Assembly: GCA_030746775.1 (NCBI GenBank)
Contig: JASLLZ010000002.1
Span: 1,663 to 65,662 of the forward strand
Origin: Rhodospirillales bacterium
GTDB taxonomy: Bacteria; Pseudomonadota; Alphaproteobacteria; Rhodospirillales; JASLLZ01
DNA: 64,000 bases
Direction: 5' to 3'
Shown: piece by piece, positions 46,993-62,716 of the stretch
Layout of the letters: every line of letters starts with the position of its first letter
How positions within the stretch are numbered: position 1 is the first letter of the stretch
The notes under the pieces: generated by a model
What the model was told of the DNA's origin: nothing
Databases searched by the model: none
Seen by the model: the letters and a program-made list of their open reading frames with translations, nothing else
Translations under genes and position numbers: made by a program

Positions 46993-47020
46993 AAACTTAT
47001 CTCCCAATTAGTGCACGTTC

Positions 47021-47588: not shown

Positions 47589-48674
47589 TCATTCGTACAC
47601 GTGCCCCCATTCGTGGCTGTCCGAGTAATCGTATCCGAGGTCGTGGATCAACTCACGCTGCAAGCGTCCCAAAATATGTTTTTTCCGCGATTCCGAGATG
47701 ACGCCACGTTCCTTGCGGTACGAGACCCGGGAATTCGTCGCGTGTTCGTCTTTGGGGACCTTGTCCGCCATCGCCTTCTTGCTTGTCCTTTTGAGGGCTT
47801 CTTCAAGGCATTCCAGCGGGATGTCCAGTTTCCAAAAGTCGGTCATCGCTTTCAGCGTGCCGACCTGATCCGCCTTCAGTTCATGGTATCTCACGATCAG
47901 GCATCTTGGGTGCCAGGTGGCGACATCCCCCCAGCTATTGTAAAACTCAATGTCGTCGTCGAGGTAACGATCCCAATTGAAACTATCCTCGTCGTCCAGG
48001 GTAACCTCGGGCCAAAAAGAGCTGTTCCCGACCTTGAAGAAGTTGCCTTCCAGGCTTTCGAGGATGGATCGCACGACAACCACCACGTTCATATTCTTTA
48101 CCTTGCGACAGCGCAGGCGGTAATAGGGATGATGGGTGTGATAGAGCACGGGCTCGGTGATCAGCCCGAGCAGATCGTCGTTCATGGTACCCGCCGGCAC
48201 CCGCCAGTCCAGTTTTGTGTAACGAACGCCGCCGCTGGGATGCCACCAGTTGTCGATGTAGGCATAATCCCCTTTGCCGCCGGCGGCGAGGTCCATGGCA
48301 AGCGCGATGGCCAGCGAATACCACCCATATCCTGACCGCGACAGGGTGGCGCAAACGTTATCGATTTTACCGCCGTCGAAATAGAAACCGAGGCAGTTGA
48401 GTTTCTGACGGAAGTCGAAATCAGGACGGAGGAACAACTGGCCCAACGATAACGCGTCCCAAATGTCCTTGGCTGGAAACCTGTTGAGGACGATATCGCG
48501 TGCGCGGACCGGTAGAAGAGTGCGTTCCAGAAAACTCCACACACGGGCGGTGGCGGTGTCATTCGATTGGTAGAGGAGCATCCCGCTCTTGCTGAGGACG
48601 GGTTTGCGTCGCCCAAAAAATTCCCCCCGCGTATTCTCGGCCAGCTCCTCGGTCACGTCTTCCATGCCTGTCAT
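47589..48674 (-). CDS. Divergent sulfotransferase-fold protein
   Basis: SRSGYGW (5'-PSB-like), HTH, VVVRSILESL (3'-PB-like), LIVRYHELKAD; start uncertain (ORF extends to 48764). Confidence 0.7.
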   Translation of the reverse strand: MTGMEDVTEELAENTRGEFFGRRKPVLSKSGMLLYQSNDTATARVWSFLERTLLPVRARDIVLNRFPAKDIWDALSLGQLFLRPDFDFRQKLNCLGFYFDGGKIDNVCATLSRSGYGWYSLAIALAMDLAAGGKGDYAYIDNWWHPSGGVRYTKLDWRVPAGTMNDDLLGLITEPVLYHTHHPYYRLRCRKVKNMNVVVVVRSILESLEGNFFKVGNSSFWPEVTLDDEDSFNWDRYLDDDIEFYNSWGDVATWHPRCLIVRYHELKADQVGTLKAMTDFWKLDIPLECLEEALKRTSKKAMADKVPKDEHATNSRVSYRKERGVISESRKKHILGRLQRELIHDLGYDYSDSHEWGHVYE

Positions 48675-48711
48675 CGGATACCGTTTTTTCCCTTGTATCG
48701 TCGCATTACGC

Positions 48712-49527
48712 TCATCCGTTGACCGTTTCCGCATCGGAGTCGAAAAAACGGGTGATCGAGCCATCGGCCATCATGGCAACGGCCTTTTCATAATCCTTCG
48801 CCGTATCGATCTCAAGCCAGCCGCCGGCGACCGGCACTGCGTGAACCGCGACGCCGGAAAGAATTACCTCCATCAAAAGATCGGTCATGTAGGCACCCGT
48901 CAAGGGCCGCTTTTCCATCCATGGGCGGGGCACCGCCCCGAGCCCGGCACGGGCGGCCCGCAAAGCGTCGATGCCTCCGTTCCTGAACCGCATCAAGCCA
49001 ATGTACTGAGCCTCGATTTCATCAATGTCCGTGACCTTGTTCCCGACATCGGTAATGCAGCCGCGGGCGTCCATGCGCAGGCTTTCGGCGTCGCTTAGGG
49101 GATCTTCGAAGCGGTGCTCCCAATAGGTCCGCCAGTTGCGATCGACGACGATGGAGATCTCTTCAGGGCTGTTGAGCAGGGCAGCGAGGACGCGTGGTTC
49201 ATAGACGATGTCGCTGTAAGAGACAATCAGGTCGCGACCGAACTCGGCCGCCGTGCAAAACAGGGATTCCACCATGTTCGTGGTCTCCCAATGAGGGTTC
49301 AGAATCTGGCGCGTCCCGGGAAGGTTCAACATCTCGCCCCGGTACCCGGTGGCGATGACGATGTCCTTGATGCCAGCGCCTCCGAGGGTGGCGATCTGGC
49401 GTCCGATCAGGGTTTGGCCGCCAAGTTCGGCCAGGCATTTCGGACGGTCCTTGGTATAAGCGTCGAGGCGACTGCCGCGTCCAGCGGCCAGAATGATCGC
49501 CCTCGGGCGAGACCGATCCCCGATCAT
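48712..49527 (-). CDS. LicC-family nucleotidyltransferase (Cj1416-like)
   Basis: AIILAAGRGSRL..PKCL, TNMVESL, SYSDIVY, AQYIGL, WLEIDT. Confidence 0.88.
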   Translation of the reverse strand: MIGDRSRPRAIILAAGRGSRLDAYTKDRPKCLAELGGQTLIGRQIATLGGAGIKDIVIATGYRGEMLNLPGTRQILNPHWETTNMVESLFCTAAEFGRDLIVSYSDIVYEPRVLAALLNSPEEISIVVDRNWRTYWEHRFEDPLSDAESLRMDARGCITDVGNKVTDIDEIEAQYIGLMRFRNGGIDALRAARAGLGAVPRPWMEKRPLTGAYMTDLLMEVILSGVAVHAVPVAGGWLEIDTAKDYEKAVAMMADGSITRFFDSDAETVNG

Positions 49528-50315
49528 TTGGCGCGCGCGATAATCACGGCGGCGTTACAGAAGGCCGGCAAGAAGAGCCCGATCAACGTCTTCTGCACGG
49601 CGTTGCCAAGCAAGGACAGACGGTAGCCCTCCGCCCTCCCCTTGGTTTCATCGAAGGTCTTGTGGGACGCCGCCCGGAAAGGCCGGAACTTGTAGACGAA
49701 AGGCATATTCTCGACGAAATAGATGTCTTCAATGGCAAATCCGTTGCGCGAGAAGACGTCCTTCAATTCCTGTTGCGTGTGGTTGATTTTGTGGAACCGC
49801 CGCTCGCCGCCGGATTGTTTTCGGTCGGTCAGCCAATCGATCATGCGGTTTTGGATGTTATCGAGTCGCATCGCCGCGCAGAGATGACCCCCGGTCTTCA
49901 AGACGCGGCGGGTTTCGCGGACCGCGTCGGCGATCCCTTGTTCCAAATTGTGATAGAGACCGAAAGCCAGGACACAAGAGAGACACTCATCGGCAAAAGG
50001 AAGTTTTTCCACGTCGGCGGCGGTCAATGGGATGGCGGGGACCGCTTGTTTGATCTTTTGGACCGCCGTCGGGATGAAATCCATGCCGATGATGTCGCGT
50101 CCCTGTTGGTGGTAGAAGCGCACGACCCTTCCGGCACCGCAACCGGCCTCGAGGATGGGGCCGCTGACCGTAAGTCGACGCAGGGTGTCTTCGGCGAATT
50201 TCCCGGGGTAGCGTTTCAGGTTGAGCTTGCCGGTATCGGCATCGACGTCGTCCCACCGGGCCTGCCAGTAGGCCCGGCTGCCGCCATGAGAACGATAGGT
50301 GATTCGTGCCATCAA
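49524..50315 (-). CDS. Class I SAM-dependent methyltransferase
   Basis: ILEAGCGAG, LPFAD, RVLKTGG. Confidence 0.88.
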   Translation of the reverse strand: MMARITYRSHGGSRAYWQARWDDVDADTGKLNLKRYPGKFAEDTLRRLTVSGPILEAGCGAGRVVRFYHQQGRDIIGMDFIPTAVQKIKQAVPAIPLTAADVEKLPFADECLSCVLAFGLYHNLEQGIADAVRETRRVLKTGGHLCAAMRLDNIQNRMIDWLTDRKQSGGERRFHKINHTQQELKDVFSRNGFAIEDIYFVENMPFVYKFRPFRAASHKTFDETKGRAEGYRLSLLGNAVQKTLIGLFLPAFCNAAVIIARAK

Positions 50316-50347: not shown

Positions 50348-50974
50348 TCATGGTGACGACGGCCCGCCGATCAGGCTTTCAAGCAACTTGCGGTCGCCGC
50401 CCGGGGCGCCGCGCCGTTCCGCATGCCACATGATCGCCGCAATCGGCAGGGTTTGGTGAAAAAAGGCCTCGACGTTACCGTCTCCATCGTGTGCCGCCCC
50501 AACCAGGCCGCCGCCCAGCCCATCCGCCGGCACCGCCTGGGTATGAAAGGAATTAACCATCGTTTCAGAGTCGTAATAATCCCGCCATGACGCGCCCACG
50601 CTGACCGCGTGCGGACGCGCCACATGGCCGTCGACGGGGACCAGGCGGCCACCGAAGTGAAGGTTTATGAGCTGCATGCCGCGGCAAACGCCAAGGACGG
50701 CGAGGCCGCTTCCAATGGCATGCTCCAACAGCCTGTTTTCCGATGCGTCGCGTTCAGGCGTGGCGCCAAGATCGTCGCCCCCCGTAAGGACCAATAAATC
50801 GGCGCCCAGGCCGTCCAGGTAGCTCTCGGGAGCACTCAGGTGATTGGGCACCAGCAGTGGCGTCATGTCCCATTCGCCGAGCCGCGTCAGCCAGTCATGA
50901 CTGATGGAATCGCGGGGCTCCACGTATTCCGACGCCTGGGTCACGCGCATGGTCAGGGCCACCCTGGGTGTCAT
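50348..50974 (-). CDS. Type 1 glutamine amidotransferase/peptidase C26 (Cj1417-like gamma-glutamyl hydrolase)
   Basis: TGGDD, GVCRGMQ, VNSFH, MWHAER; Y.E.RD N-terminal motif. Confidence 0.88.
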   Translation of the reverse strand: MTPRVALTMRVTQASEYVEPRDSISHDWLTRLGEWDMTPLLVPNHLSAPESYLDGLGADLLVLTGGDDLGATPERDASENRLLEHAIGSGLAVLGVCRGMQLINLHFGGRLVPVDGHVARPHAVSVGASWRDYYDSETMVNSFHTQAVPADGLGGGLVGAAHDGDGNVEAFFHQTLPIAAIMWHAERRGAPGGDRKLLESLIGGPSSP

Positions 50975-50977
50975 CTT

Positions 50978-53323
50978 CTAATGCCCGGTGATGCGGCGCG
51001 CCGCCGCGTTGAGTTCGATGACCGCCGCCGCTGCCAGGGATTCGTACAGGCGCTCGCCGCAGCCGATGGCGGCGGGCAGGCCGAACTCGGCGCAGCGCAC
51101 GGCCATGTGGGAGTTGGCGCCGCCGTACTTGGTCACCAGGCCGGCGATGGCGTGGGAGAAGATCCAGTCGAACCCCGGATCGGCGCTTTCGATGAGGACG
51201 ATGCCGCCGTCGATGTCCGGCGCCCCCTCGACGTCCAAGCGCCGCGCCGGGGCGGTCACCGATTGTCCGGTGATGAAGGTCGGATGGCCGAGCGGCAGGC
51301 GCACCACGTCGATATCCTTGGTCTCGCAGATCAGGTGGGGCAGGCGGATGGCGCGCGTCACTTCGTAGGCCTCGCGCTGGCTGGCGATGCGCTCGCGCAA
51401 GGCGGCGCCGTCACGGTCTTCCAATATATCCCCGATGGTGAGAAACGAGAGATCGTCGCGCTCGAGGCCCAGGGCGGCGCCCCATTGGACCAGGATCGAG
51501 AGCGTCTCGCTGATCGAATGCGTGAAGGCGAACTTGGCCTCCTCGCGCAGGCGCACGGCATCGGCGATGTAGGCCAAAAGGGCATCGGGGTCCAAGGCGT
51601 AACCGAACTCTCCGAGAAGGGTGGCGATGGCGGTGCGCTGGCCGGGGCTTGGCGCGAAGGGCTCGGCCGCGGCCGGCGCCGCGAGCCCGCTATGGCCGAT
51701 AAACAACTCGGGGCGTTCGTCATAGCGCCACGACGTGATGTCGTAGGTGCCGGGACGAAGGTGGCCATAGCGGGCCAGGAACGCCGCCTGGTCCATGACC
51801 CCGGCGCCGACGGCGTGCATGTCGTGGACCAGATCGGCGGCCACCGTGTGGATGGAGCGCATGAAGCGATCCACGTCGTCGGTGGTGAAAACGCCCCGCG
51901 TCACAAGGGAGCGCAGGAAAGCGACGCCAATGAATCCATGGCGCGCCAGCATGGAAAACGGCAGGGTGCCGTTCGTCTTGCAGCCGTCGAGGAGCGACCG
52001 CGCGCGGTCCAGCGACGGGGCGCCGGAATCCCCTGCGCCGTCCGCCAACAGCCCCCGTGCCTGGCGGGCCAGGGCTTCCAGGCCGCCATCGTGTTGGGCA
52101 AGGGCGTTTGCGGTGACTTGACCGAGCGCCCCTTCGAAGGCATCGGCCTCATCCGATGTCATGACGCCGGCGCCGATGCGCGCCCGGTCGTCGGCGAAGG
52201 CAAAATGACGGCAGGTGGCGGCGACCTCGAACTCGATCTTGTCGTGCAGGTCGGGCTGTTCGGCAAGCCGCGCCAACTGATCGTCGACCAGCCTTTGTGC
52301 CACGCCATGATCGAGGTCGGCGGGGAGGAAGGAGTTGAAGCTGAGTCTGACGTCGATATAGGGGCGGCCGTGGAAGTCGATCAGCAGCGGCGCCTCGACG
52401 CGGCGGTATCCCATGGCCGCCCGTGCCTCGGCCCAGACCCGGTCGGTGATCAGGTGTTTGTACAGCGACAGTGCCAGCGGCCGGGGCGCGTTGCCGATCA
52501 TCTCGGCCGGGTTCCAGTCCGGCATCTCGCCGAAGATGGTGCGCCCGCCGGCCAGTCCGGAACGCGGCGCCATACTTTCGCCGATGGTGGCGCGGATGGT
52601 ATCGATGGCGGCGTCGATCACCGGGTCGGGGACGGCGCGCCAGCGCCGCCGCGCCGCCAGGGGGCGGACCTGGAGGATATAGACCTGATCGTCGGCGGTG
52701 GTGCAGAACTCGATATCCAGGTGCTGGGTGGCGGTGACGCGTTCGATCTCGATGACGGCGTCGATCAGGGCCGCCATGCGCGGCGATTTGAGCGCCTCGG
52801 GCCGCGAACGGTGGACAAGGACGGTCTTGCTTTGGGCGCCGCCGGTAACGGTGTCCGTGCGGCCCGAAAAATCGTCGTAGTTGACCACGTAGTAGGGGCC
52901 GCCCGTATCCAACTCGCGGGTCAAGACGACGCCTGACAGCACCGTATTCTCGACCATGGGCTGGATCAGAACCTGGTCGCCGGCGGCCGGCGCGCGGTAG
53001 CTCTCGAAGACGGCGTCGATGGCGCGGGCAAGGTCCGGCGCGCGGGCCTCGACGTCGATCAGGCTGAGATGGGCGCCGGCGTGGGAGGCATCCCAGCCGT
53101 CCTCGCCGGCGGCGGACGATCGTACGGCGAGAAGCCCGGGCGCGAAGCGCCCGACAATGCGTTCGACGACCCGTTCCGGGCTTTGCCGCCACTCGTCCAC
53201 GGCGACCGTGATCTGCGGGCACAGCTTGGCTCCCGCGACTTGGGGGCCCAATTGTTCCAGCGTCTTTGCCTTGGTATTGAACGTGAAGGCTGCTGGCGCG
53301 GTGGCGGCGGATTCTACGCCTAT
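50978..53323 (-). CDS. PEP-utilizing/PPDK-like enzyme (Cj1418-like L-glutamine kinase)
   Basis: AVRSS, QPM, LQVRP, MPDWNPAEMIG, HDKIEF, YGHLRPGTYDI, GGANSHMA phospho-His domain; frame is open upstream of the TTG at 53251, start uncertain. Confidence 0.88.
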   Translation of the reverse strand: MGVESAATAPAAFTFNTKAKTLEQLGPQVAGAKLCPQITVAVDEWRQSPERVVERIVGRFAPGLLAVRSSAAGEDGWDASHAGAHLSLIDVEARAPDLARAIDAVFESYRAPAAGDQVLIQPMVENTVLSGVVLTRELDTGGPYYVVNYDDFSGRTDTVTGGAQSKTVLVHRSRPEALKSPRMAALIDAVIEIERVTATQHLDIEFCTTADDQVYILQVRPLAARRRWRAVPDPVIDAAIDTIRATIGESMAPRSGLAGGRTIFGEMPDWNPAEMIGNAPRPLALSLYKHLITDRVWAEARAAMGYRRVEAPLLIDFHGRPYIDVRLSFNSFLPADLDHGVAQRLVDDQLARLAEQPDLHDKIEFEVAATCRHFAFADDRARIGAGVMTSDEADAFEGALGQVTANALAQHDGGLEALARQARGLLADGAGDSGAPSLDRARSLLDGCKTNGTLPFSMLARHGFIGVAFLRSLVTRGVFTTDDVDRFMRSIHTVAADLVHDMHAVGAGVMDQAAFLARYGHLRPGTYDITSWRYDERPELFIGHSGLAAPAAAEPFAPSPGQRTAIATLLGEFGYALDPDALLAYIADAVRLREEAKFAFTHSISETLSILVQWGAALGLERDDLSFLTIGDILEDRDGAALRERIASQREAYEVTRAIRLPHLICETKDIDVVRLPLGHPTFITGQSVTAPARRLDVEGAPDIDGGIVLIESADPGFDWIFSHAIAGLVTKYGGANSHMAVRCAEFGLPAAIGCGERLYESLAAAAVIELNAAARRITGH

Positions 53324-53340
53324 GGGAGGAGACCTGGTGA

Positions 53341-54909
53341 TTATAGGACTTTCTTGCGGATCGCCGAGGACACCATGTCGATGACGAAGATGGTGGCGAA
53401 TATGATGAAGATGATTGCCGACACCCGGGGATATTCGAACATCCTGAACGACGACTGCAACTCATAGCCGATGCCGCCGGCGCCGACGATGCCCAGCATG
53501 GTCGCCATGCGGACGTTGCGGTCCAGGATGTAAAGGTTGTTGCCGACGAACGACGGCATGATCTGAGGCACCACGGCAAAGGCCAGAACCTGAAGCCGCG
53601 AGGCACCCATGGACCCGAGCGCCTCGATGGGACCGACGCTAACGTGCTCCATGTCCTCGGCGTAGAATTTGGCGAGGAACCCCATGGTGTGGAGCCCCAA
53701 CGCGATGACCCCCGGCATGGCGCCGAAGCCGACGGCGATAACCAAGATCATGGCCATGATGAACTCGGGCACGGCGCGAAAGAAGATGGTGATCGTGCGC
53801 GCCACCATGTAGAGGCCGACGTTGGGAGCGATGTTACGGGCCGAGAAAAGACCCGTCGGAATGGACAGAAGGATGGCCAGGAGTGTGCCCAGAACAGCGA
53901 TCTCGATGGTTTCCAGCATGGACAGCAAAAGGGTTCCGAGGTCGGAGAAATCGGGCGGCCACATCCTGGCACCGACGTCGGCGAAATAGGCCGATGCGTC
54001 CCTGAAGAGCGCCAGGGGATTGAATTCCAAGTCGACCATGATAAGGCCGATGACGGCGGCGGCGAGTAATACGCAGAGGCCGCTACGCCAGCCCCACTGG
54101 GGCCTGAGATAGGATTCGAGAAGCTTGCGCCGGGCCACCGCCGGGTCCAGGTAGCGCTCCATGGCGCCGCCGTATCCGCCGACATCGATGAATTCGTGGG
54201 CGTGCAGGATCAAGTCCTTGAGCTTCTCTCGCATCGAGTCATCGAGACTTCGCGAGCACACCAGCGGCGCGCCCGGAATGTCCTGGGAGCGGTGGATGAC
54301 GCGCAGGGCGCCGGGCGTCACGATGCCTTGGCGCTGGGCCTCCTCCATGTTTACCGAGCTTAGCGCGGCGACGTCGACCTGGCCGTCGAGGACGGCGCGC
54401 AGCGCCTCGTCATGGTTGGCGACGGAAATGACGCCGGCGAATTCGCCTTCGTTGTCGAGGTTGATCCCGGCATCGGCCAACTCGCGCTGGGGCACCATGA
54501 AGCCGCTCGTCGAGTGGCGTCCGCTAACGGCGATCCTTTTCGCCTTCACGTCTTTGAGGGCATGGATGGGAGAGGCGGCTTGGGTGACGAAGACGGATCG
54601 ATAATTGGGCGAGGTTTTGCCTTTGGGCACACCGACGGCCAACGCCTCGACCTGACCGTCGCGTGCCGCTTCGAGATAGGCGAAGGGGCCCAGCCACCCG
54701 ATCTCGGCGGTGCCCTCCGTAAGAGCCTCGATCGCCTCTTCGTAGCTTTTGCAGTAGACGAGTTCGATGGCGATGCCCGAGCGCTCCGCCAGATGACGCA
54801 CCAGGCCCCGAAGGTCCAACCCCTCGGCGTGGTCGCTGGCCGGAGCGACGACCAGTGTCAGGCCGTCGGTGCCGCCCTCGCGGTGTGATATGTCTCTTGT
54901 CTGGGTCAA
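53341..54909 (-). CDS. phnE: Fusion of PhnD-like binding domain and PhnE permease
   Basis: N-terminal WLGPFAY, STSG, NHD; C-terminal RAVPE, GPIEALGSMGA, LGIVGAGGIG. Confidence 0.85.
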   Translation of the reverse strand: MTQTRDISHREGGTDGLTLVVAPASDHAEGLDLRGLVRHLAERSGIAIELVYCKSYEEAIEALTEGTAEIGWLGPFAYLEAARDGQVEALAVGVPKGKTSPNYRSVFVTQAASPIHALKDVKAKRIAVSGRHSTSGFMVPQRELADAGINLDNEGEFAGVISVANHDEALRAVLDGQVDVAALSSVNMEEAQRQGIVTPGALRVIHRSQDIPGAPLVCSRSLDDSMREKLKDLILHAHEFIDVGGYGGAMERYLDPAVARRKLLESYLRPQWGWRSGLCVLLAAAVIGLIMVDLEFNPLALFRDASAYFADVGARMWPPDFSDLGTLLLSMLETIEIAVLGTLLAILLSIPTGLFSARNIAPNVGLYMVARTITIFFRAVPEFIMAMILVIAVGFGAMPGVIALGLHTMGFLAKFYAEDMEHVSVGPIEALGSMGASRLQVLAFAVVPQIMPSFVGNNLYILDRNVRMATMLGIVGAGGIGYELQSSFRMFEYPRVSAIIFIIFATIFVIDMVSSAIRKKVL

Positions 54910-54930
54910 GGTGGTTTTCCTTGGGCGCGG

Positions 54931-55728
54931 TCAGGCCGTGAAGCGCAAATCCTCTTCGGGGCGCGCCTGATCGGCACCTGGACCAAAGAACAGTCCTTGG
55001 TCGTGGCCCCGGTAAATATCTTGGATATATCCTTCGTCGACCTCGTCCGTAGGTCGGTCCATGACGATCCCGCCACCCGCCAGGCCGACGATGCGGTCGG
55101 CGAAGCGCAGTGCGAAATCAACCTGATGGAGGTTGCACACCACGGTAATGCCATGCGTCCGGTTGATGTCTTTGAGGAGCGACAGAATGTTAAAGGCGAT
55201 CAATGGATCCAGACTCGCCACCGGTTCATCGGCGAGCAGCACGGCGGGCTTCTTGATGATCGCCCGGGCGATTCCGACGCGCTGCTGCTGGCCGCCCGAC
55301 AGCCGGTCGGCCCGCGTATAGGCCTTGGCCAGGATGCCGACGCGGTCGAGGCATTCGAGCGCCCACAGCTTGTGCTCCTTGTTGAACAGATAGAGCAACG
55401 ACGCCATCGTCGCGGTGCGGTCAAGGACGCCGGTCAGGACGTTGTTGAGGGCGGTCAAGTTGCCGACCAGGTTGAAGTCCTGAAAAATCATGCCAATGCG
55501 CCCGCGGACTTGGCGCAGGGAGTCCTTCGCGACACGCCGACCTTCGAGTTCGACGGTGCCGGTGCTCGGCGTTACCAGGCCGTTGATACAGCGTAGAAGC
55601 GTCGTCTTTCCCGAACCGCTGGGGCCTAAGACGACGACGAATTCGCCCTTGCCGACCTCGAGGGACACGTCGGAAAGGGCCCGCGTTCCGTCCTCGAAGG
55701 TCTTACCCAGGTGGGCGATGCTCAGCAT
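54931..55728 (-). CDS. phnC: Phosphonate/phosphite ABC transporter ATP-binding protein
   Basis: GPSGSGKTT, LSGGQQQRVGIARA, ADEPVASLDP, NLHQV; start at MLSI. Confidence 0.92.
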   Translation of the reverse strand: MLSIAHLGKTFEDGTRALSDVSLEVGKGEFVVVLGPSGSGKTTLLRCINGLVTPSTGTVELEGRRVAKDSLRQVRGRIGMIFQDFNLVGNLTALNNVLTGVLDRTATMASLLYLFNKEHKLWALECLDRVGILAKAYTRADRLSGGQQQRVGIARAIIKKPAVLLADEPVASLDPLIAFNILSLLKDINRTHGITVVCNLHQVDFALRFADRIVGLAGGGIVMDRPTDEVDEGYIQDIYRGHDQGLFFGPGADQARPEEDLRFTA

Positions 55729-55741
55729 GGCCGAGGGATCG

Positions 55742-56623
55742 TCACTTTTTCTTCGATTGGCGCAGCAAGCGGTCGACCGCGCGCAGTGTGTCGTAGTCGG
55801 AATCCTTGACTTCCACATAGCGCTCCATCTCGCCGCCGTAGCCGCCGATACGGCCATGCTTGTGGGCCTCCAGCGTGGCGCGCTTGATGGCGTCGCGTAC
55901 CTCTTGGGGCAACCGCTTGGAATAGGCCAAGGGCGGCGGCGGCACGGGAGGTGAGGTGTGGATGATGCGCACCTCGGCCCGCTTGAAGGTGCCGTCGGCA
56001 AGGCGGGCGTCGAAATTGCGCGAACTCATGCCGCAAACGTCGGCGTGTTTGTTGAGCACGGCAAGCAGGCAGGCGTCGTGGCTGCCGGCGTAGACGACCC
56101 GTTTGAAGTGTTCGCGATTGGTCGTCGAGAGGCCGACCTTTCTGAGCTCCACCTGGGGGATGAGATCCCCCGATGTAGAGCCGATGGTGTTGAGGGCCAA
56201 AGTCTTGCCACTTACATCTGTGAGGGTCTTGAGGGGACTGTCGGCCGGGACGACGAAGTGGGCAAAATAGCCGGCCGTAGTGTCACCCTTACGGATGCCG
56301 GCGGCAAAAGCTTCGGCATCGGCGATCTCGGCGGCCATGATGTAAGTCTTGCCGCCGTACCAGGCGATCTCGGCGCGTCCGGCCCGCATGGCCTCGACGG
56401 CGGCGTTGTAGTCGGTGATTTTAATGGGCTTGATCTCATAGCCGGTCAGGTCGCCGATGATCTTGATCAGGTTGACGTAGTCCTTTTCGTCGCCTTTCTC
56501 GCTGGCCGGAACGAAGACCATGTTGAGCTTAAGCGCGGCGGCTTGGGAAGGCGCCGGACTCAAGGACAAACCGGCGGCCAGGGTCACGGCGACGATCAGT
56601 ATTCTTGCGTATGATTTATTCAT
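55742..56623 (-). CDS. phnD: Phosphate/phosphite/phosphonate ABC substrate-binding protein
   Basis: Signal peptide; DYNAAVEAM, STSG, AGSHDA, DSDYD. Confidence 0.88.
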   Translation of the reverse strand: MNKSYARILIVAVTLAAGLSLSPAPSQAAALKLNMVFVPASEKGDEKDYVNLIKIIGDLTGYEIKPIKITDYNAAVEAMRAGRAEIAWYGGKTYIMAAEIADAEAFAAGIRKGDTTAGYFAHFVVPADSPLKTLTDVSGKTLALNTIGSTSGDLIPQVELRKVGLSTTNREHFKRVVYAGSHDACLLAVLNKHADVCGMSSRNFDARLADGTFKRAEVRIIHTSPPVPPPPLAYSKRLPQEVRDAIKRATLEAHKHGRIGGYGGEMERYVEVKDSDYDTLRAVDRLLRQSKKK

Positions 56624-56670
56624 TGCTTTTCTCTCTTCGTTGCGTGCCGGTTTTATCCTCCGGCGTCGTG

Positions 56671-57786
56671 TCACTCCTCGAACTCCAAGAGCGCTTTTTC
56701 GTAGTCCTCGACGGTGTCGATTTCCTTCCAGCCGCGTTCGATGATGACGCAGTGGACGGGAACGCCAAGGTCGGCCATCTCCTGGATCATGTCGGTGAGA
56801 TAGGCCTTCTCGAAGGTCTCCGCCCTCTGAAACGGCTTGCCCCAGTAGAGGGCCTTGGCACGATGGAAGTGGCGCTTGAAGATTTCCGCCCCTCTCGGGG
56901 TCAGCTTCATCATGCCGATGAACTCGCCGTGGACGTCACGCTTGTCGGTCAGAATCTTGCCGATATTCACGACGTTGTTGTTGGCGTCGAAGATGACGTT
57001 CTCGGCCTCGTCGATGGGGTGCTGCTTGCGCCCGACGTAGGTGCCCTTCCAGTCAATGTCGACGACGATGGAGATGTCGTGCTCGGAATCGAGCAATCGG
57101 CGTACCACGTGGTCTTCGAACAAGATGTCGGAATAGGCGACGATGACGTGGCCGTTGATCTCGTCCTCGGCGCAGAAGATAGAATTGAGGATGTTGTTGT
57201 TCTCAAAGTTCGGGTTCTCGTGATAGCGGATGCCCTTGTATTTGATCTTGTCCTTCTTGTAGCCGCGCACCAGGGCGATGTCCTTGGCCCCGCAGGCCTT
57301 GTAGACGCTGAGCTGGCGCTGCAACAACGTCTTGCCGCCGAAGTCGAGCAGGCACTTGGGCTTGTTTTCGGTGTAAGACCTCATTCGGCTGCCCAATCCC
57401 GCCGCGATGATGAGAACACGCGTATTGGATGCCATCATGGTCTCCTTGATCCGCCTTATCTCGGCACCGTTAAGGCCGTAGTCGGCGATGGCGCGCAAAA
57501 GCCCGACAATGTCGGGGTTGTCCAGGACAAGCTCCCCGACGTCCGGCGGAATGGCGTTGCGCGACCGCCCTGCCAGGTCGAAGATGCGTTCGGCGTCGGC
57601 CTCCAGGATATCGGCCATGGCCCTGACCAGTTCGGGCCTGGGCGCGACGCGCTTGTCCTTCTCGATGTCGTTGAGATAGGACGGCGAGACGTCGAGGGCG
57701 CGCGCCAGTTCGCGCTGGCCCATTCCCTTTTCAGAACGCAGGCGGCGAACGTGTCCGCCGAACGTCGTCGTGCCGGGACGCGGCAT
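56671..57786 (-). CDS. XRE-family HTH fused to LicC/PntC-like nucleotidyltransferase
   Basis: N-terminal QRELARALDVSPSYLNDIEK; then IIAAGLGSRM..PKCL, YSDI, GEFIG, WKEIDT; AGGAGG RBS. Confidence 0.88.
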   Translation of the reverse strand: MPRPGTTTFGGHVRRLRSEKGMGQRELARALDVSPSYLNDIEKDKRVAPRPELVRAMADILEADAERIFDLAGRSRNAIPPDVGELVLDNPDIVGLLRAIADYGLNGAEIRRIKETMMASNTRVLIIAAGLGSRMRSYTENKPKCLLDFGGKTLLQRQLSVYKACGAKDIALVRGYKKDKIKYKGIRYHENPNFENNNILNSIFCAEDEINGHVIVAYSDILFEDHVVRRLLDSEHDISIVVDIDWKGTYVGRKQHPIDEAENVIFDANNNVVNIGKILTDKRDVHGEFIGMMKLTPRGAEIFKRHFHRAKALYWGKPFQRAETFEKAYLTDMIQEMADLGVPVHCVIIERGWKEIDTVEDYEKALLEFEE

Positions 57787-57892
57787 GGATCAGACCTCCT
57801 CATTGGCCGCCGGAGGGCGCCGGCCGTCCGATCCCTCGACGGAGGACAAGGTGGAGCGATGCGTGCGCAAGTGAGCCATGGGCCGCCATAAG

Positions 57893-57941
57893 TGTTTACG
57901 TGTTCGCAAACAAGTTAACACGTATGAGTGCGTCCAGACAA
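57893..57941 (-). promoter_or_regulatory. Putative promoter with overlapping inverted repeats (operator candidate)
   Basis: TACGTGTT-N12-AACACGTA (57897-57924) and TGTTTACG-N4-CGCAAACA (57893-57912); minus-strand TTGTCT-N18-TAACTT. Confidence 0.5.
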
Positions 57942-57970
57942 GTAAATTTTTTCCGGCGCGGTCAAAGGAC

Positions 57971-59758
57971 TCAGGAGAACTGGCTTTCGTGAAGTTCCGA
58001 AAATCGTCCTTTTCTCGCCACAAGTTCGTCGAAGGAGCCCGATTCCACGACCTGGCCCCCTTCCATGACGAAGATGGTGTCGGCCTTGCGCACGGTGGCC
58101 AGGCGATGGGCGACGACGATGATGGTCAGCCGGTGGGAGATCGATCCGAGGGCCTCTTGGATCAGGGTCTCGGACTCGTTGTCGAGCGCGCTGGTCGCTT
58201 CGTCGAGAAGCAACAGCTGGGGATTGCCGATCAACGCCCGGGCCAGGGCCAGGCGCTGCTTCTGTCCGCCCGAAAGCCTGACCCCGCCTTCGCCCAACAC
58301 CGTATCCAGGCCGTCGGGCAACGCCTCAATAATGTCGCCGAGACGGGTCAACTCCACGACCTGATCGATGTCCGCCTCGGTGACTTCCGGATGGGCGAAG
58401 ACGAGGTTGTTGCGCACCGTGTCGTTGAAGATGATCACGTCTTGGGTGACGTAGCCGATACGCTTGCGCCACGACAACAGGTCGATCCGCCTGAGATCGA
58501 CGCCATCGATTTCGATGCGCCCGGCATCGGGGATCCGCAGCCCGGCGATCAGGTCGATCACCGATGACTTGCCGGCGCCCGAGCGGCCGACGATGGCAAT
58601 CGTGTTGTTACGCGGTATAGGCATGGTAACCGCCGATACCGCCCCCATGGTCTCGTTTTCGTAGTGGAAGGTGACGTCATGCAGTTCCACGCCGTGCTCC
58701 AGCGCCTCGAAGGGCTTGCCGCCGACGCCGCGTTCCTCAGTCTGTTCGCGGGCTGCCGCGATGGCGGCGTCGACCACGGGCAATGTCGCCGCGTAGCCTG
58801 CGTATCCTTGGTAATACTGCTGCAACTGGATGAGCCGTGGCACCATGCGCGCCATGATGATGAGGAACGTGAAAAGCACCGCGGTCGGGACCCCGAGTCC
58901 TTGGCGGGAAACGGCAATGATACCGGCAAGGATGGCGACCGCCAGGGTTTGGACCAGGAAAAAAGTGAAGACGCGGATCACTTCTGAAGAGAGAGAAGTA
59001 TTGACGGCGGTCCGATTGAGCTCCCCCAAGCGCTCGATCACCCGCTGTTCGGAGCCGGTGACGCGTATCAGCCGCGCACCCTTCAAATAGTCGACGATAT
59101 GAACACCATAATTCCGATTGGCCTTGATAATCGCGTCGCCAATGTTTCTGGATCGTGCGTGCAGAGGCCGGATCATCCAGCCCACCAGTGCCGCCAGGGC
59201 AATGGTCAGCGCCAGAAGTCGCCACGACAGCAATGAACTGATGACCGCGAATATGGCGATGTGAATGATCGTGGCGACGACCATCACCTGGAGGATCAGT
59301 CCGGCGGCGCTGCGGTGACATTCGACCAGGAGCTTGTTGACCACATCGCCCGACGACTGCCCCGACAGGTGGTGCCAGCGCGAAAGGAACAAGTTTTCGC
59401 CAAGCGCCTTGCGTAGCGCTTCCATGTGGCCATGCCGGGCCCGTTCGAGCATCCGGTCCTTGGCGAACGTGATGGCGAACGACCCGCCCACCAGCACGAC
59501 GATTAACGCAAGCATGGTGAACAGGTTCATGGGAAGGTGAACGGTATCCAATACCGTCTTGAGAATAACACCGCCCTTGCCCAGCTCCTTGCCTCCGCCG
59601 TCCAGGGTTTCCAGCAAGGGAATGAACAAGGTAAGTCCCAGACCCTCGCAAAGTCCCGCCGTGACGGTCACCGCCAAGGCGAGCCAAGTCCCCGGAAGCC
59701 GGCCCAAGGTGGACAGGAACTTGGTTCGCGGTTCGAGGACCGTCCCCGTTTTGGTCAT
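57971..59758 (-). CDS. ABC exporter, fused permease/ATPase (MsbA/PglK-like glycan flippase)
   Basis: TM domain plus GRSGAGKS, LSGGQKQR, DEATSALD, AHRL. Confidence 0.9.
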   Translation of the reverse strand: MTKTGTVLEPRTKFLSTLGRLPGTWLALAVTVTAGLCEGLGLTLFIPLLETLDGGGKELGKGGVILKTVLDTVHLPMNLFTMLALIVVLVGGSFAITFAKDRMLERARHGHMEALRKALGENLFLSRWHHLSGQSSGDVVNKLLVECHRSAAGLILQVMVVATIIHIAIFAVISSLLSWRLLALTIALAALVGWMIRPLHARSRNIGDAIIKANRNYGVHIVDYLKGARLIRVTGSEQRVIERLGELNRTAVNTSLSSEVIRVFTFFLVQTLAVAILAGIIAVSRQGLGVPTAVLFTFLIIMARMVPRLIQLQQYYQGYAGYAATLPVVDAAIAAAREQTEERGVGGKPFEALEHGVELHDVTFHYENETMGAVSAVTMPIPRNNTIAIVGRSGAGKSSVIDLIAGLRIPDAGRIEIDGVDLRRIDLLSWRKRIGYVTQDVIIFNDTVRNNLVFAHPEVTEADIDQVVELTRLGDIIEALPDGLDTVLGEGGVRLSGGQKQRLALARALIGNPQLLLLDEATSALDNESETLIQEALGSISHRLTIIVVAHRLATVRKADTIFVMEGGQVVESGSFDELVARKGRFSELHESQFS

Positions 59759-59879
59759 CGGGACAAGTATCCGTTTGCGAGAGGCGTGGAATGACGGGTC
59801 AGTGGGGTCAAAAGCAACACCCAATGACCGGCGACGGCGAGGCCGAAAAGGATAGGTCTTTCATCGGAGCCGCGGCGCT

Positions 59880-60683
59880 TCAAAGGGTATCCACATCGTA
59901 GGTGGGCTCGTTGTATTGGTGGTGGTCGAAATCATGAAACGTGAAAATCTTCTCGTTCCAGACTTGCCGGCGTTCGGCGAACAGTCCGTACGGTTTGGCG
60001 AATTTTTTCTTCGGGTGGGCATCGTTGAACTCCTTGATCGCCTTCAGTTCCCCGATGAATTCATTGGTACCCAGGATATCGTCGAAAACGCAGAAAACCC
60101 TGGGCAGGTAATTCTCCGCATCACGGAAGAGTTCGAAAGAATCCCTGGTCGATGAATAGTAATCGAGATCAAAAAACACAGCCCCGATCGGGGCGGCGTC
60201 CGGATAAACATCAAAAAAAGTCTTGCTAGTTTCTTTTACATCGCCAAGTACGAGTTTCGTGTGTTTTAGTTCTTTCTTTAAACTGTCCGGATTCATCTCA
60301 TAGCCGCCCTCCCACCATTTGAAAGGCATATCCTGATAATCCTCCGGTTTCGGCAGCCCCTCCTCTAAACCGAACCCGAATACGTCGAAATCCAAATCGA
60401 ACTCGCGTTTGATGTTATCGATATGTTTTTCGATGCTCCTAAGTCCTTGGCCCTTGGCCACGCCGAGTTCGACAATGCTGATCCTCGAATGATTGAGGCT
60501 TTTGGCCAGCATGGCGGCCTTGTAGATGCAGTAGCCGTACTCGGGTCTCTCGACCTCGTTGAAAACGGTTCGGTAGTAGTAGTGGGAACGGGAGTATTTG
60601 TTCCTCAACCTTCGCAACCCCCGGAAAAGAGCCACTCTCAGGGGGTAGGGATAGGCGAGGATGTCCTTAAGCAGACGAACCAC
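59880..60683 (-). CDS. Hypothetical protein with TylF/MycF-like O-methyltransferase motifs
   Basis: VELGVAKG, GF..EGLP, LVLGDV, FFDLDYYSS, FDD; visibly AT-richer than neighbours. Confidence 0.6.
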   Translation of the reverse strand: MVRLLKDILAYPYPLRVALFRGLRRLRNKYSRSHYYYRTVFNEVERPEYGYCIYKAAMLAKSLNHSRISIVELGVAKGQGLRSIEKHIDNIKREFDLDFDVFGFGLEEGLPKPEDYQDMPFKWWEGGYEMNPDSLKKELKHTKLVLGDVKETSKTFFDVYPDAAPIGAVFFDLDYYSSTRDSFELFRDAENYLPRVFCVFDDILGTNEFIGELKAIKEFNDAHPKKKFAKPYGLFAERRQVWNEKIFTFHDFDHHQYNEPTYDVDTL

Positions 60684-60757: not shown

Positions 60758-62716
60758 TCAAGAGGCCGAGGATCCGACAAGACCGCTTGGCGATGTTTGG
60801 CCCTCGCCGCCATGGGCGCCTTCCCCGGCAGCCAAATCTCCCGGCAGGCCTTCTTCCATGACCTCCCAGAAACGCTGGCACGGATTGGGGATTTCATCGC
60901 GTGCACAGAGGTCGTTGAGCGCCCGGTCGCCACTCACGGAGCGGCCCTCTTCGAGCGCCGGCCCCAATTGGGCCAGGTCGGTGAGCACGTCCAGGTGGCG
61001 GTAGTAACCGGGATCCATGGATGTGGGCGGTATCCAGAACCCGAAATATCGCTTGTCCGCCGCAAGGGCCTCGGCCATGGCGCCGGAATGCACCGGGCCG
61101 ATGACGAATTCCGCCGCTGGCAGAAGTTCTCTCAACGGCCGATACTTGATGATTTCGCAATCGATTCCAAAATAAGCGGCGATCGCGTCGTAGTATTCCT
61201 TGCGCGGCGGGCCAGGGTGAACCTTGAAGATCGCGTCCTTGTCGCCCTTTGTCTTCAGGAGTCGCATGACGGTTACAAAATAGGAATACTTGGTCGCGTT
61301 GACGGCGCCGAGGTCGAGCCCGAGGGCGCTATGTTCGATAACGAGGACGCGACCCACCTTCCCCGTCGGGGGTGGCGGGCTTGCTCGGCGGTAGGCCTCG
61401 CCGAGAGGATAGCCGACGCGAACGCGCTGGCACACGGCTCCGATGGCGTTCAACCACTCGTCGTTGGTGTTGCCCCAACTTAGTTGCCGGCTGACCAGGG
61501 GTGGGCACCTGGGGTCGCCACCCAAGGCATCGACCTTGAGCCGTTCCGGTACGTAGGGGCTGTGCCAGATGTAATCCACGGGGATGCCGTTTTCATGGGC
61601 CAGCTCGACATATGTCCGGTAGGGAGGATTCTTGACGCCGTCGACGACGAGACGGGACGGGGAAAAGACCCTCAACACCCGCTCGGCCTTTTTCACTTCC
61701 CTGGCCAGGGCGAACAAGGTGTCTTCGTTCAAGAAGCATTTTCGGGCATAGCGGCGCGCCAGTTCCTCGACCAGCGGCGCCGGCTTCATCCACGCCCCCT
61801 CCAGGGTCGCAATTATGTCCCTGACGGCCTTTTTTTCCGTCGCCGTCAGACGACAAGGTAGCGTGGCGATCAAGAGCGCACCCTTTTTAATGCACGACCA
61901 CACGAAGCTAGGTTTCTTGGACTGGTTTGCCGACAAGAGGACGGGGCGAACGGCGCCCCCGGCATAGGATTCCATGAGGGGCACGGACAGTGACGTGTTG
62001 AGCATGATCAACACGTTGCGCCGGCGCCGAGAAAGACCATGGACGACGCGGCTGTAGGCGTGGAAAATGCCGCCGAACACCATCACCAGGGCTCGTCTCG
62101 ACAGCCCGCTTCCGCTCCCTTCGGTCGGGGCGTTGAAGTCTTCCGCCACCATGGGAAGGCCGGGGTCGTTGGCGTCTACCGGGTCGCTTCGGTCGCGGAC
62201 CGTCACGCCCTGGCCATCCGCCACCGTCAAGGCGATGAAACGCCGGCTTTCCGCGTCCAAGGTGTTGGATTCGGCGCGGAAGTCGAAAAAAACCAGTTCC
62301 TTGGGGCAAAACGTCTCGATCAACGCGCTCAGCGCCCGTTCCATGCGCACCCCGGCCGCCAGAACCCGCACCGTGACGAACTGCTTGCCGAGCGATGCGC
62401 CGCGAAAGAGAGTCGCATCGCGGCCGTCCACGTAGACCCATTCATTGGCCCGAATACGAAGGTCGGTGTGCAGGGTATCGGAACCTTGCCATGCAAGGAT
62501 GCCCCACTCGGCGGGAATGCAGTGCCATCCCTCGGCCGCCGCCTTTTGCCATAGCAGCCAGTCGGATGAGACGATGAGCGTGTCGGTGTCGCCACGGTCC
62601 AGTTGCGCCAGGTGCCTCTCATGGGTGACCAGGGCCAGGCGGACGTAACGGTCCTTCAACCCGTCGCGGGCCGCCTCGACGGCGATCGGTTGGCGGTGCG
62701 CCGGCGCTTCGTTCAC
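60758..62716 (-). CDS. Hypothetical capsule-biosynthesis-like protein
   Basis: 652-aa ORF; FKVHP and SGAMAEAL segments resemble GT-B-like capsule polymerases or transferases. Confidence 0.6.
   Translation of the reverse strand: MNEAPAHRQPIAVEAARDGLKDRYVRLALVTHERHLAQLDRGDTDTLIVSSDWLLWQKAAAEGWHCIPAEWGILAWQGSDTLHTDLRIRANEWVYVDGRDATLFRGASLGKQFVTVRVLAAGVRMERALSALIETFCPKELVFFDFRAESNTLDAESRRFIALTVADGQGVTVRDRSDPVDANDPGLPMVAEDFNAPTEGSGSGLSRRALVMVFGGIFHAYSRVVHGLSRRRRNVLIMLNTSLSVPLMESYAGGAVRPVLLSANQSKKPSFVWSCIKKGALLIATLPCRLTATEKKAVRDIIATLEGAWMKPAPLVEELARRYARKCFLNEDTLFALAREVKKAERVLRVFSPSRLVVDGVKNPPYRTYVELAHENGIPVDYIWHSPYVPERLKVDALGGDPRCPPLVSRQLSWGNTNDEWLNAIGAVCQRVRVGYPLGEAYRRASPPPPTGKVGRVLVIEHSALGLDLGAVNATKYSYFVTVMRLLKTKGDKDAIFKVHPGPPRKEYYDAIAAYFGIDCEIIKYRPLRELLPAAEFVIGPVHSGAMAEALAADKRYFGFWIPPTSMDPGYYRHLDVLTDLAQLGPALEEGRSVSGDRALNDLCARDEIPNPCQRFWEVMEEGLPGDLAAGEGAHGGEGQTSPSGLVGSSAS

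Follow-up and report, generated by a model that had tools for sequence, protein, structure and literature searches.

What is an enzyme with its own DNA-binding domain doing at the head of a phosphonate-type importer, directly before a set of phosphoramidate genes? The question is raised by positions 53341-57786 of a 64,000-nucleotide (nt) stretch of DNA, here called the window, from a marine Rhodospirillales bacterium (GenBank assembly GCA_030746775.1, contig JASLLZ010000002.1, positions 1,663 to 65,662). A preliminary description, made from the letters alone, took this segment for a self-regulating module that imports and activates a phosphorus compound for glycan decoration, and this interpretation is supported overall by the comparative sequence analysis given here. 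In the reading preferred below, the first gene would encode an enzyme-repressor working in the manner of BirA or NadR, which activates an imported phosphonate (methylphosphonate or 2-hydroxyethylphosphonate, 2-HEP) for glycan decoration. Our confidence in the full mechanism is evenly divided, its weakest links being the identity of the cargo and the steps after activation. The sequence evidence comprises intact domains, a conserved cassette, a candidate operator conserved in sequence and position, an exchange of the importer for MpnS/PepM genes and a modular set of downstream genes (the chassis). The cassette itself has four genes:

56671-57786, minus strand: fusion of an XRE helix-turn-helix (HTH), a linker and a nucleotidyltransferase, 371 amino acids (aa); ATG start with a strong Shine-Dalgarno sequence 8 nt upstream
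55742-56674, minus strand: PhnD-family periplasmic binding protein with signal peptide; probable start an internal ATG near 56623
~54931-55701, minus strand: PhnC ATPase (TIGR02315 297.1 bits, cut-off 266.1)
53341-54909, minus strand: fusion of a PhnD-like domain and the PhnE permease (PhnDE), 522 aa (TIGR01097 267.1 bits, cut-off 216.7)

These genes open a string of 13 that runs head to tail on the minus strand from 57786 to 43755 with gaps of at most ~45 nt. Profile matches on the same strand bear out the PhnD-PhnC-PhnDE transporter that was said to follow the fusion gene.

The fused nucleotidyltransferase

The HTH was matched at aa 9-66 by HTH_31 and HTH_3 (E 7e-14 and 8e-10; PF13560 52.3 bits, cut-off 27; PF01381 39.1 bits, cut-off 23) and the enzyme by NTP_transf_3 (PF12804, E 3e-14) from aa 124. 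Both domains lie above their Pfam cut-offs and the catalytic signature is intact, as expected of the continuous open reading frame (ORF) joining an XRE domain to a full LicC/PntC-like nucleotidyltransferase that had been described. An assembly artefact, named beforehand as a refutation, is excluded, because, of the 120 best homologues listed, which are full-length and 63-92% identical, 118 have the same two-domain layout, and because contigs from other seawater metagenomes, which match the window stretch, run across the junctions. No difference was found over the junction of PhnDE with the following glutamine-kinase gene (contig X3, 52929-53513; X6, 53096-53384), or at the nucleotidyltransferase/PhnD junction, in the HTH region and in the upstream region. 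Contigs X3 and X4 apparently belong to one data series, and X6 and X10 come from other studies. The 120-aa N-terminal module was also searched against 1.84 billion representatives, giving 3045 matches at E <= 0.001 and 134 at 1e-10; these are mostly proteins or fragments of 100-170 aa and yield no usable family size for the fused form.

The GxGxR-x8-PK loop at aa 130-144 is invariant in all 22 aligned homologues, and the YSD metal-binding aspartate and a C-terminal acidic motif are likewise invariant across the phyla in this alignment. The motif definition, GxG(T/S)R-x4-8-PK, and the roles of the catalytic residues were taken from work on PntC (PMC6697681). A PDB sequence search returned LicC (1jyk, E 2.9e-12) and then PntC (6pd1) as the closest solved sequences. 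An AlphaFold model of the fusion (predicted local distance difference test score, pLDDT, 84.3), in which the HTH region forms a five-helix bundle, was compared with solved structures using Foldseek. The top folds were PntC (6pd2, E 3.4e-16), an inositol-1-phosphate CTP (cytidine triphosphate) transferase (4jd0) and LicC (1jyl/1jyk), with template modelling (TM) scores of 0.80-0.84 on the target. Tyr218, invariant in the fusion family, occupies the position of PntC Glu104 and LicC Asp105, which face the ammonium group of aminoethylphosphonate (AEP) or choline (PMC6697681). Judged from this position, AEP and phosphocholine would be poor substrates; the residue argues against neither the fold nor the chemistry.

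Relatives were sought by a pattern scan in which each GTDB species was represented by one genome; of the 189 found, the 80 best loci were analysed (L numbers are given where single loci are meant). Stand-alone orthologues of 256-290 aa, without the HTH and 57-72% identical, keep the transporter context (PhnD/PhnC/PhnDE in L071; a transporter of the major facilitator superfamily, MFS, and a porin in L061), and the enzyme part therefore has a role of its own. Since the catalytic residues are invariant, the best folds are PntC and LicC and the HTH-less orthologues stay beside the transporter, the enzyme domain is taken as probably active and the HTH as an added control. The enzyme domain may at the same time be the ligand sensor of the regulator. 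Should it be a sensor only, idle in vivo within an ordinary XRE repressor, other enzymes would have to activate the cargo. Enzyme-derived sensor domains are common in regulators, the window holds a second LicC-like nucleotidyltransferase (NT2), and in the biosynthetic loci L033 and L060 PepM carries a further, fused cytidylyltransferase; the last point weighs against our own reading too, as catalysis by the fusion may therefore be redundant in those loci. A domain with sensory duties alone is nevertheless judged rather improbable: its catalytic residues are all kept across phyla, it persists beside the transporter without any DNA-binding domain, and in most cassette loci the fusion is the only nucleotidyltransferase in view.

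In a single gammaproteobacterial case (L068:9653-10783), an Arm-type integrase-like DNA-binding domain replaces the XRE HTH and PhnD/PhnC/PhnDE still follow. The arrangement may have arisen by another, independent fusion event, or may be a scar of recombination.

The importer and its cargo

In 50 of the 80 loci the fusion gene is succeeded on its own strand by PhnD together with PhnC and PhnE. Where 3.5 kb or more of downstream DNA was available (62 loci), PhnD followed in 42; the import-and-activate unit proposed from one sequence is thus recovered in the neighbourhood survey. Among those 62, an MFS transporter, often with a phosphate-type porin, replaces PhnD in 6, phosphonate biosynthesis genes occur in 9, and 8 have none of these partner types. 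Over all 80 loci, the MFS transporter is present in 8 and biosynthesis genes (PepM, Ppd, iron-dependent alcohol dehydrogenase [Fe-ADH] or MpnS) in 10. Most cassette loci belong to Pelagibacteraceae; further hosts are Rhodospirillales, Thalassospiraceae, Planctomycetia, Omnitrophota, Aminicenantes and gammaproteobacteria. The commonest partner other than a transporter is a TagF-like phosphotransferase (PF04464, 27/80 loci). A protein resembling adenosine 5'-phosphosulfate (APS) kinase stands near the fusion gene in 13/80 loci and in the window, cytidine diphosphate (CDP)-alcohol transferases lie nearby in L017, L019, L020 and L051, and ManC-like enzymes, small multidrug resistance (SMR) pumps and sulfatase-family proteins are frequent past the transporter. 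In the loci examined, an oxidising or cleaving enzyme was never found within the cassette.

The link to phosphonates comes from loci in which the importer is exchanged for a biosynthetic pathway. In L033 (SAR11) the order is cytidylyltransferase-PepM fusion, Ppd, Fe-ADH, fusion gene and a 435-aa MpnS homologue (E 1.7e-108 to PDB 6b9s). L002 (Rhodospirillales) has ABC (ATP-binding cassette) exporter, sulfatase, fusion gene, MpnS homologue (E 6.6e-81), Fe-ADH and APS-kinase-like gene, and L079 resembles it but with a stand-alone nucleotidyltransferase. A fusion of phosphoenolpyruvate (PEP) mutase with a nucleotidyltransferase and an HTH-cupin protein adjoin the fusion gene in L060, L062, L066 and L076, together with Fe-ADH in L060, L062 and L076. 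The L033 fusion protein is 92% identical to SAR11 copies that are paired with the importer; L039 has the importer and PepM/Ppd/alcohol dehydrogenase together, and its fusion copy is 97% identical to an importer-only copy. Given this identity across contexts, the same enzyme-repressor would be served by either de novo synthesis or import. Such a swap is expected if the imported molecule is methylphosphonate, the product of the pathway, or 2-HEP, its last intermediate, and one of these two is most likely the cargo to judge by gene context. Of the phosphonate, phosphite or phosphoramidate first suggested, the phosphonate is favoured and the other two disfavoured, because in loci lacking the importer the fusion protein accompanies MpnS, PepM, Ppd and Fe-ADH.

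The binding protein was then compared with characterised relatives, with residue roles in the PhnD family, including that of GpxB Arg223 in holding the glycerol hydroxyls, taken from PMC12718374. PhnD of the window matches Phosphonate-bd (E 1e-52) and has a signal peptide. It passes the broader TIGR01098 model (179.5 bits, cut-off 112) and stays below the PhnD equivalog cut-off (TIGR03431, 208.1 vs 261.1 bits); both the PhnC (TIGR02315) and the PhnE (TIGR01097) equivalog models are above cut-off. Its nearest solved relatives are phosphite and phosphonate binders (PtxB 5e-25; GpxB weak, E 2.3e-8). The residues around the PO3 head group in E. coli PhnD (Tyr, Tyr, Ser-Thr-Ser, His) are kept in 49 of 49 cassette PhnDs. 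All 49 have an Arg at the position of E. coli Glu177, which is also that of GpxB Arg223, and a Pro-rich loop in place of the capping Tyr of PtxB and marine PhnD and of Asp205 of the E. coli protein; the position of GpxB Thr247 is Pro. On the specificity positions of PhnD and of the nucleotidyltransferase, 2-AEP and phosphocholine were rejected as cargo, and phosphite is less likely, as the aromatic cap is missing and there is no oxidising partner gene. The missing cap and the Arg appear to fit 2-HEP somewhat better than methylphosphonate.

The same pocket supplies points that weigh against the proposed cargo. The cap that is lacking is the one used by phosphite- and methylphosphonate-binding relatives, the Arg resembles that of the glycerol-phosphate binder GpxB, and methylphosphonate may suit this PhnD less well than a phosphate ester or a compound whose tail is hydroxylated or anionic. 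A phosphate ester such as glycerol-1- or glycerol-3-phosphate would be converted to a CDP-alcohol for TagF-like glycerophosphotransferases, giving a teichoic-acid-like decoration under unchanged regulation. The frequency of the TagF-like partner, the CDP-alcohol transferases near four loci and the inositol-1-phosphate CTP transferase among the top folds agree with this, besides the Arg and the open pocket. The proposal is considered unlikely, since proteins 92-97% identical sit within MpnS/PepM/Ppd/Fe-ADH clusters, the match to GpxB is far weaker than that to PtxB and has Pro in place of Thr247, and cells make their own glycerol phosphate, so that a dedicated importer with a repressor is hard to justify.

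Decoration rather than catabolism was the fate first proposed for the cargo, and genomic content is in keeping with it. By a profile scan of the window ORFs, 1-43.7 kb is a surface-glycan locus with glycosyltransferases, a Wzy-type ligase/polymerase, epimerases, FkbM methyltransferases, a B12-radical-SAM enzyme, a cytidine monophosphate (CMP)-sugar synthetase and an MBOAT protein. As had been noted, the window has no C-P lyase, phosphonatase or PEP mutase; these families were absent from all 46 ORFs scanned. The assembly (3.63 Mb, 203 contigs, 97.6% complete, 6.55% contamination) has no PhnJ, no PEP_mutase-family gene and no PhnA, and also no mpnS and no ppd. PF13714 is unspecific as a PepM marker, matching 11 of 14 control genomes as well as 4 of 5 other cassette genomes, and only the blank in the genome itself is informative. 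Two findings count on the other side. Another contig has a fragment of PhnX (C52:1-468, 203.6 bits, profile positions 1-156, cut by the contig end), and this genome or a contaminant contig may catabolise 2-AEP separately; among 5 cassette genomes checked, 1 has C-P lyase (PhnJ). The cassette thus coexists with some phosphonate catabolism. These findings, the PhnC and PhnE equivalog matches and the phosphite- and phosphonate-binding relatives of PhnD would also agree with a nutritional importer scavenging phosphorus as phosphonate, phosphite or phosphate, placed in a glycan island by chance and with the fusion as its local regulator. This explanation is quite improbable in our judgement: the genome lacks the catabolic genes named above, no oxidising or cleaving enzyme ever stands in the cassette, the partners are transferases, kinases and phosphonate biosynthesis genes rather than catabolic ones, and the pocket departs from characterised scavenging PhnD and PtxB at the specificity positions.

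The permease of the importer has an unusual form. In PhnDE a signal-less PhnD-like domain (aa ~17-260) precedes the PhnE permease (aa 278-521). The fusion occurs in 15 sequences, the window and L001, L003, L004, L005, L007, L008, L010, L014, L017, L040, L047, L051, L068 and L071; in SAR11, PhnE is plain, without the extra PhnD-like domain. None of the 15 has an N-terminal hydrophobic segment, and all 15 keep the PO3-binding residues in the fused domain, except that the Thr varies. In the window, five Arg/Lys precede the first transmembrane segment (278-296), an acidic loop follows it and the C-terminus is basic; by the positive-inside rule, the PhnD-like domain is predicted to be cytoplasmic. 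We would guess that it is a substrate sensor that trans-inhibits the pump from within.

A candidate operator before the fusion gene

The module had been called self-regulating. Two features upstream of the fusion gene bear on this claim:

57892-57921, no strand assigned: 30-base-pair (bp) near-palindromic candidate operator (45.1 bits on the minus strand, 32.5 on the plus strand), with perfect 8-nt arms 12 nt apart
57936-57941, minus strand: -35-like hexamer, 4/6 to TTGACA, 17 nt before operator position 4

The palindrome was first spotted by eye. A matrix was made from 19 sites of other loci and scanned over the 80 loci (1.17 Mb, both strands) at >= 13 bits, giving 38 matches in 35 loci: 28 before the fusion gene, 8 before phnD and 2 elsewhere. 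Three Markov-resampled sets of loci gave 2, 1 and 1. Sites before the fusion gene lie 34-113 nt from the matched start, with one at 334 nt, and those before phnD, all 8 of them in SAR11, lie 30-166 nt upstream. Seventeen of the 36 well-placed matches were absent from the matrix seeds. Within the 64-kb window the candidate operator is the sole match. Across the 3.63-Mb genome there is no other strong site, the runner-up scoring 19.2 bits against 45.4. A -35 box close to consensus (>= 5/6 to TTGACA; 8 perfect) stands 15-17 nt before site position 4 in 13 of the 25 strong sites, which places the palindrome's left arm on the -10 region. Self-regulation is supported by this sequence pattern. No DNA-binding protein other than the fusion accompanies the candidate operator in every case, so that autorepression through occlusion of the promoter at the palindrome would be the simplest reading, and the SAR11 site on the phnD promoter suggests direct control of the importer.

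Several details tell against this regulation. The matrix seeds were chosen by position, which makes the 19 seed matches circular. The window operator lies ~105 nt upstream of the start codon, farther than in most loci, and the -35 box there is weak. A strict sigma-70 scan of 53000-58200 returned 0 sites (shuffles averaged 1.0). Terminator-like sites in the same interval numbered 4, all inside genes (shuffles averaged 4.5). A role of the palindrome as RNA structure was rejected, its arms being conserved in sequence and not covarying, as judged by eye only.

A subclade of the fusion protein in L060, L062, L066, L069, L076 and L077 (70-74% identical among members) has a variant operator and adjoins a 240-aa HTH-cupin protein of HppE-like layout and the PEP-mutase-nucleotidyltransferase fusion. 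Its members may make a different phosphonate.

The shared chassis, the proposed mechanism and known systems

The remaining nine genes of the string follow the importer, and an exporter gene lies on the other side of the operator. Members of the chassis are marked:

50978-53323, minus strand: glutamine-kinase homologue, Cj1418-like (NF004508 840.8 bits; 861.9 when extended)
50348-50974, minus strand: class-I amidotransferase (gamma-glutamyl-CDP-amidate hydrolase NF045546 weak, 86.6 bits, below cut-off 250)
49524-50315, minus strand: methyltransferase
48712-49527, minus strand: NT2, second LicC-like nucleotidyltransferase, 37% identical to the fused domain
47589-48764, minus strand: sulfotransferase-like protein, chassis (PF00685 E 1.8e-5; homologues in L001, L079, L089)
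47021-47554, minus strand: APS-kinase-like kinase, 177 aa, Cj1415-like candidate, chassis (PF01583 E 1.7e-36)
46405-47007, minus strand: histidine-phosphatase family protein, chassis (PF00300 E 3e-25)
45582-46379, minus strand: methyltransferase
43755-45539, minus strand: soluble sulfatase/alkaline-phosphatase-superfamily protein, chassis (PF00884 E 1e-42; homologues in L001, L002, L004, L064, L079, L089)
57971-59824, minus strand: HepA/MsbA-type ABC exporter, chassis, directly upstream of the operator and 184 nt from the fusion gene (homologues directly upstream in L001, L002, L079, L089)

The importer was said to end 17 nt before the probable start of the kinase gene. No canonical start is found there: 53296-53341 has no ATG, GTG or TTG where the conserved N-terminus begins, other metagenome contigs show no difference, and the first canonical start is TTG at 53251, 89 nt past the PhnDE stop at 53341-53343. 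When the kinase frame is read from 53323, the NF004508 match rises as listed above and its profile start moves from 24 to 6 (~18 positions recovered). The kinase coding region therefore reaches at least ~53296, with a non-canonical start, possibly ATA 53323, no more than ~45 nt from the PhnDE stop; close spacing stands, and the exact distance does not.

The placement directly before phosphoramidate genes, true in the window, did not recur in the relatives compared. No glutamine-kinase or amidotransferase homologue was found in any of the 80 fusion loci. Of 40 relatives searched, 5 have a glutamine-kinase homologue, the genome of the same genus not being among them, and in the stretches examined from these five the cassette never stands beside the kinase; the nucleotidyltransferase accompanying the kinase there is NT2. 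Homologues of all of Cj1415-Cj1418 (glutamine kinase, amidotransferase, LicC-like NT2 and APS-kinase-like kinase) are found in the window. The APS-kinase-like proteins of the window (182 bits), L002 and L022 are above the NF004041 cut-off and below that of the true CysC model (TIGR00455). In Campylobacter jejuni, Cj1415-Cj1418 make CDP-phosphoramidate 3'-phosphate, the likely donor, with the APS-kinase homologue Cj1415 phosphorylating CDP-amidate at the 3' position (PMC11800397; the O-methyl-phosphoramidate pathway was also drawn from PMC6429109).

This neighbourhood gives rise to a further explanation, namely uptake of phosphoramidate or a related P-N compound through the importer, from which the fused enzyme would directly make CDP-amidate as a salvage shortcut into the adjoining O-methyl-phosphoramidate pathway. 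The cassette is probably co-transcribed with the glutamine-kinase, amidotransferase, NT2 and APS-kinase-like genes, the fused domain resembles NT2 as listed, and CDP-amidate differs from CMP-methylphosphonate only by NH2 in place of CH3. The absence of this adjacency from the 80 loci and the five kinase-bearing relatives speaks against it, as does a PhnD pocket that is invariant across contexts, which implies one cargo, and that cargo elsewhere tracks MpnS-pathway genes. Free phosphoramidate is not known as a solute of seawater. A P-N cargo is therefore held to be very unlikely.

A phosphonate cargo can be reconciled with the neighbourhood through the chassis, whose ABC exporter, sulfotransferase-like, APS-kinase-like and sulfatase-like genes are shared by loci with different supply modules (the gene order of L001 was established by tblastn, as ORF calling is unreliable in this high-GC locus):

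L001: fusion gene and importer
L002, L079: nucleotidyltransferase, with or without HTH, MpnS and Fe-ADH
L089: glutamine kinase, amidotransferase and NT2, without fusion gene
window: fusion gene and importer, plus the glutamine-kinase block

Each supply module has its own LicC-like nucleotidyltransferase. On this comparison, the placement of the cassette before the phosphoramidate genes appears lineage-specific and the link modular, not ancestral; two feeders of one transfer machinery, possibly under one operator, would make functional sense. Because CMP-methylphosphonate and CDP-amidate differ by one group, a parallel 3'-phosphorylation route for the former would be chemically natural.

From these patterns we infer DNA binding, catalysis, cargo, effector and every step after activation as follows. 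The XRE domain, probably as a dimer or pair of dimers, would bind 57892-57921 over the -10/+1 region of its own promoter and throttle the same-strand string that starts with the fusion gene and the importer and may span all 13 genes to 43755. Periplasmic PhnD, PhnC and PhnE would take up a small phosphonate, which the nucleotidyltransferase domain would join to CTP to give a CMP-phosphonate. By analogy with CDP-amidate in the Campylobacter pathway, this product would pass to the chassis and be 3'-phosphorylated by the APS-kinase-like enzyme. The sulfotransferase-like transferase (a TagF-like or CDP-alcohol-type one in other lineages) would then move the phosphonyl group onto the surface glycan, leaving a nucleotide by-product for the histidine phosphatase to recycle. 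The affinity of the protein for DNA would depend on the substrate or product held in its enzyme domain, so that import would match demand. The glutamine kinase, amidotransferase and NT2 would form a second, de novo supply line into the same chassis.

A wider proposal is offered tentatively and is, on balance, doubtful. Many marine bacteria, including a large share of SAR11, may re-use imported methylphosphonate or 2-HEP intact, placing it on surface glycans through a 3'-phospho-CMP-phosphonate donor resembling 3'-phosphoadenosine 5'-phosphosulfate (PAPS). Control would be dual, with the enzyme-repressor acting on transcription and the cytoplasmic PhnD-like domain closing the pump once the pool has filled. 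P-C and P-N groups would be served interchangeably by one donor chemistry and chassis, and this genome would run both.

Further genes were observed around the cassette. B12-binding radical-SAM enzymes recur near it (window 21924-23570, plus strand; L004:6255-7721; two in L051; L055; two in L071). Fom3 of fosfomycin synthesis methylates CMP-2-HEP, and a CMP-phosphonate may for this reason undergo further modification here. A TagF-like phosphotransferase lies on the same contig at C126:87999-89117, ~22 kb past the window end, and is 37.5% identical to the one adjoining the fusion gene in L060. Upstream of the ABC exporter, the minus-strand ORFs 59880-60683 and 60758-62716 have no Pfam or NCBIfam match; a homologue of the 652-aa ORF, 33% identical, occupies the corresponding position in L089.

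Genes of the phnD type are widely read as marine markers of phosphonate as a phosphorus source. For the SAR11 and Rhodospirillales copies at least, the cassette suggests that imported phosphonate is instead salvaged into the cell coat; if this is true, a good part of the phnD signal in ocean metagenomes reflects coat decoration and not phosphorus nutrition. The fusion is a testable candidate for the activation of phosphonate before attachment, an open step of the marine phosphonate cycle, and would be a compact case of an enzyme regulating its own substrate supply, with a defined candidate operator. Through the chassis, P-C and P-N groups, both rare as phosphorus decorations, would share a single transfer machinery. 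The binding-protein domain without signal peptide on PhnE may represent a new type of trans-inhibition device among ABC importers.

In the literature searched, which did not cover supplementary neighbourhood tables, no published description of the fusion, the operator or the idea of phosphonate salvage was found. PntC of Treponema denticola (Tde1415, PDB 6PD1/6PD2, PMC6697681) is the top Foldseek match, has the same fold and motif and, like relatives of the window protein, sits in a PEP-mutase cluster. The window fusion differs from it by the N-terminal XRE HTH with a conserved 3-helix linker, by Tyr in place of the amine-binding Glu104 and by its pairing with an importer instead of, or besides, PEP mutase; identity in the structural alignment is ~21%. 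A term search of the PntC text (PMC6697681) found no HTH, transport, salvage or MpnS. LicC (PDB 1JYK/1JYL), the best PDB sequence match, belongs to a pathway that likewise imports its head group, activates it with CMP and attaches it to glycans (PMC6697681). The fusion system has neither the choline kinase step nor the aromatic/acidic choline pocket (Tyr stands at the Asp105 position), its importer is a PhnCDE-type ABC transporter, and the enzyme carries its own repressor domain. In the methylphosphonate clusters of Nitrosopumilus and SAR11 (MpnS, PDB 6B9S), relatives of the window protein adjoin MpnS, PepM, Ppd and Fe-ADH, whereas this genome has the importer in place of mpnS, ppd and a PEP-mutase-family gene. 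A 'choline kinase', an adenylyltransferase, LicD-type genes and an arylsulfatase were reported around mpnS as hints of phosphonate esters (Lockwood et al., 2022, PMC9381506); the HTH fusion and the operator are not mentioned in the accessible part of that paper. Of the C. jejuni pathway (PMC11800397) all four homologues are in the window, and the fusion gene and importer form no part of it. Among the PhnCDE/PtxABC/GpxABCD transporters (TC 3.A.1.9), the window system agrees in its PhnC and PhnE equivalogs and in the phosphonate-head residues of PhnD, and differs in PhnD specificity positions unlike those of every characterised member and in the extra PhnD-like domain on PhnE. BirA and NadR are nucleotidyl-transferring enzymes fused to an HTH that repress the supply genes of their own substrate, with the bound adenylate or nucleotide setting DNA binding. 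Their folds and HTH classes are unrelated to those of the fusion protein, which is likened to them by its proposed working mode and not as a member of either family.

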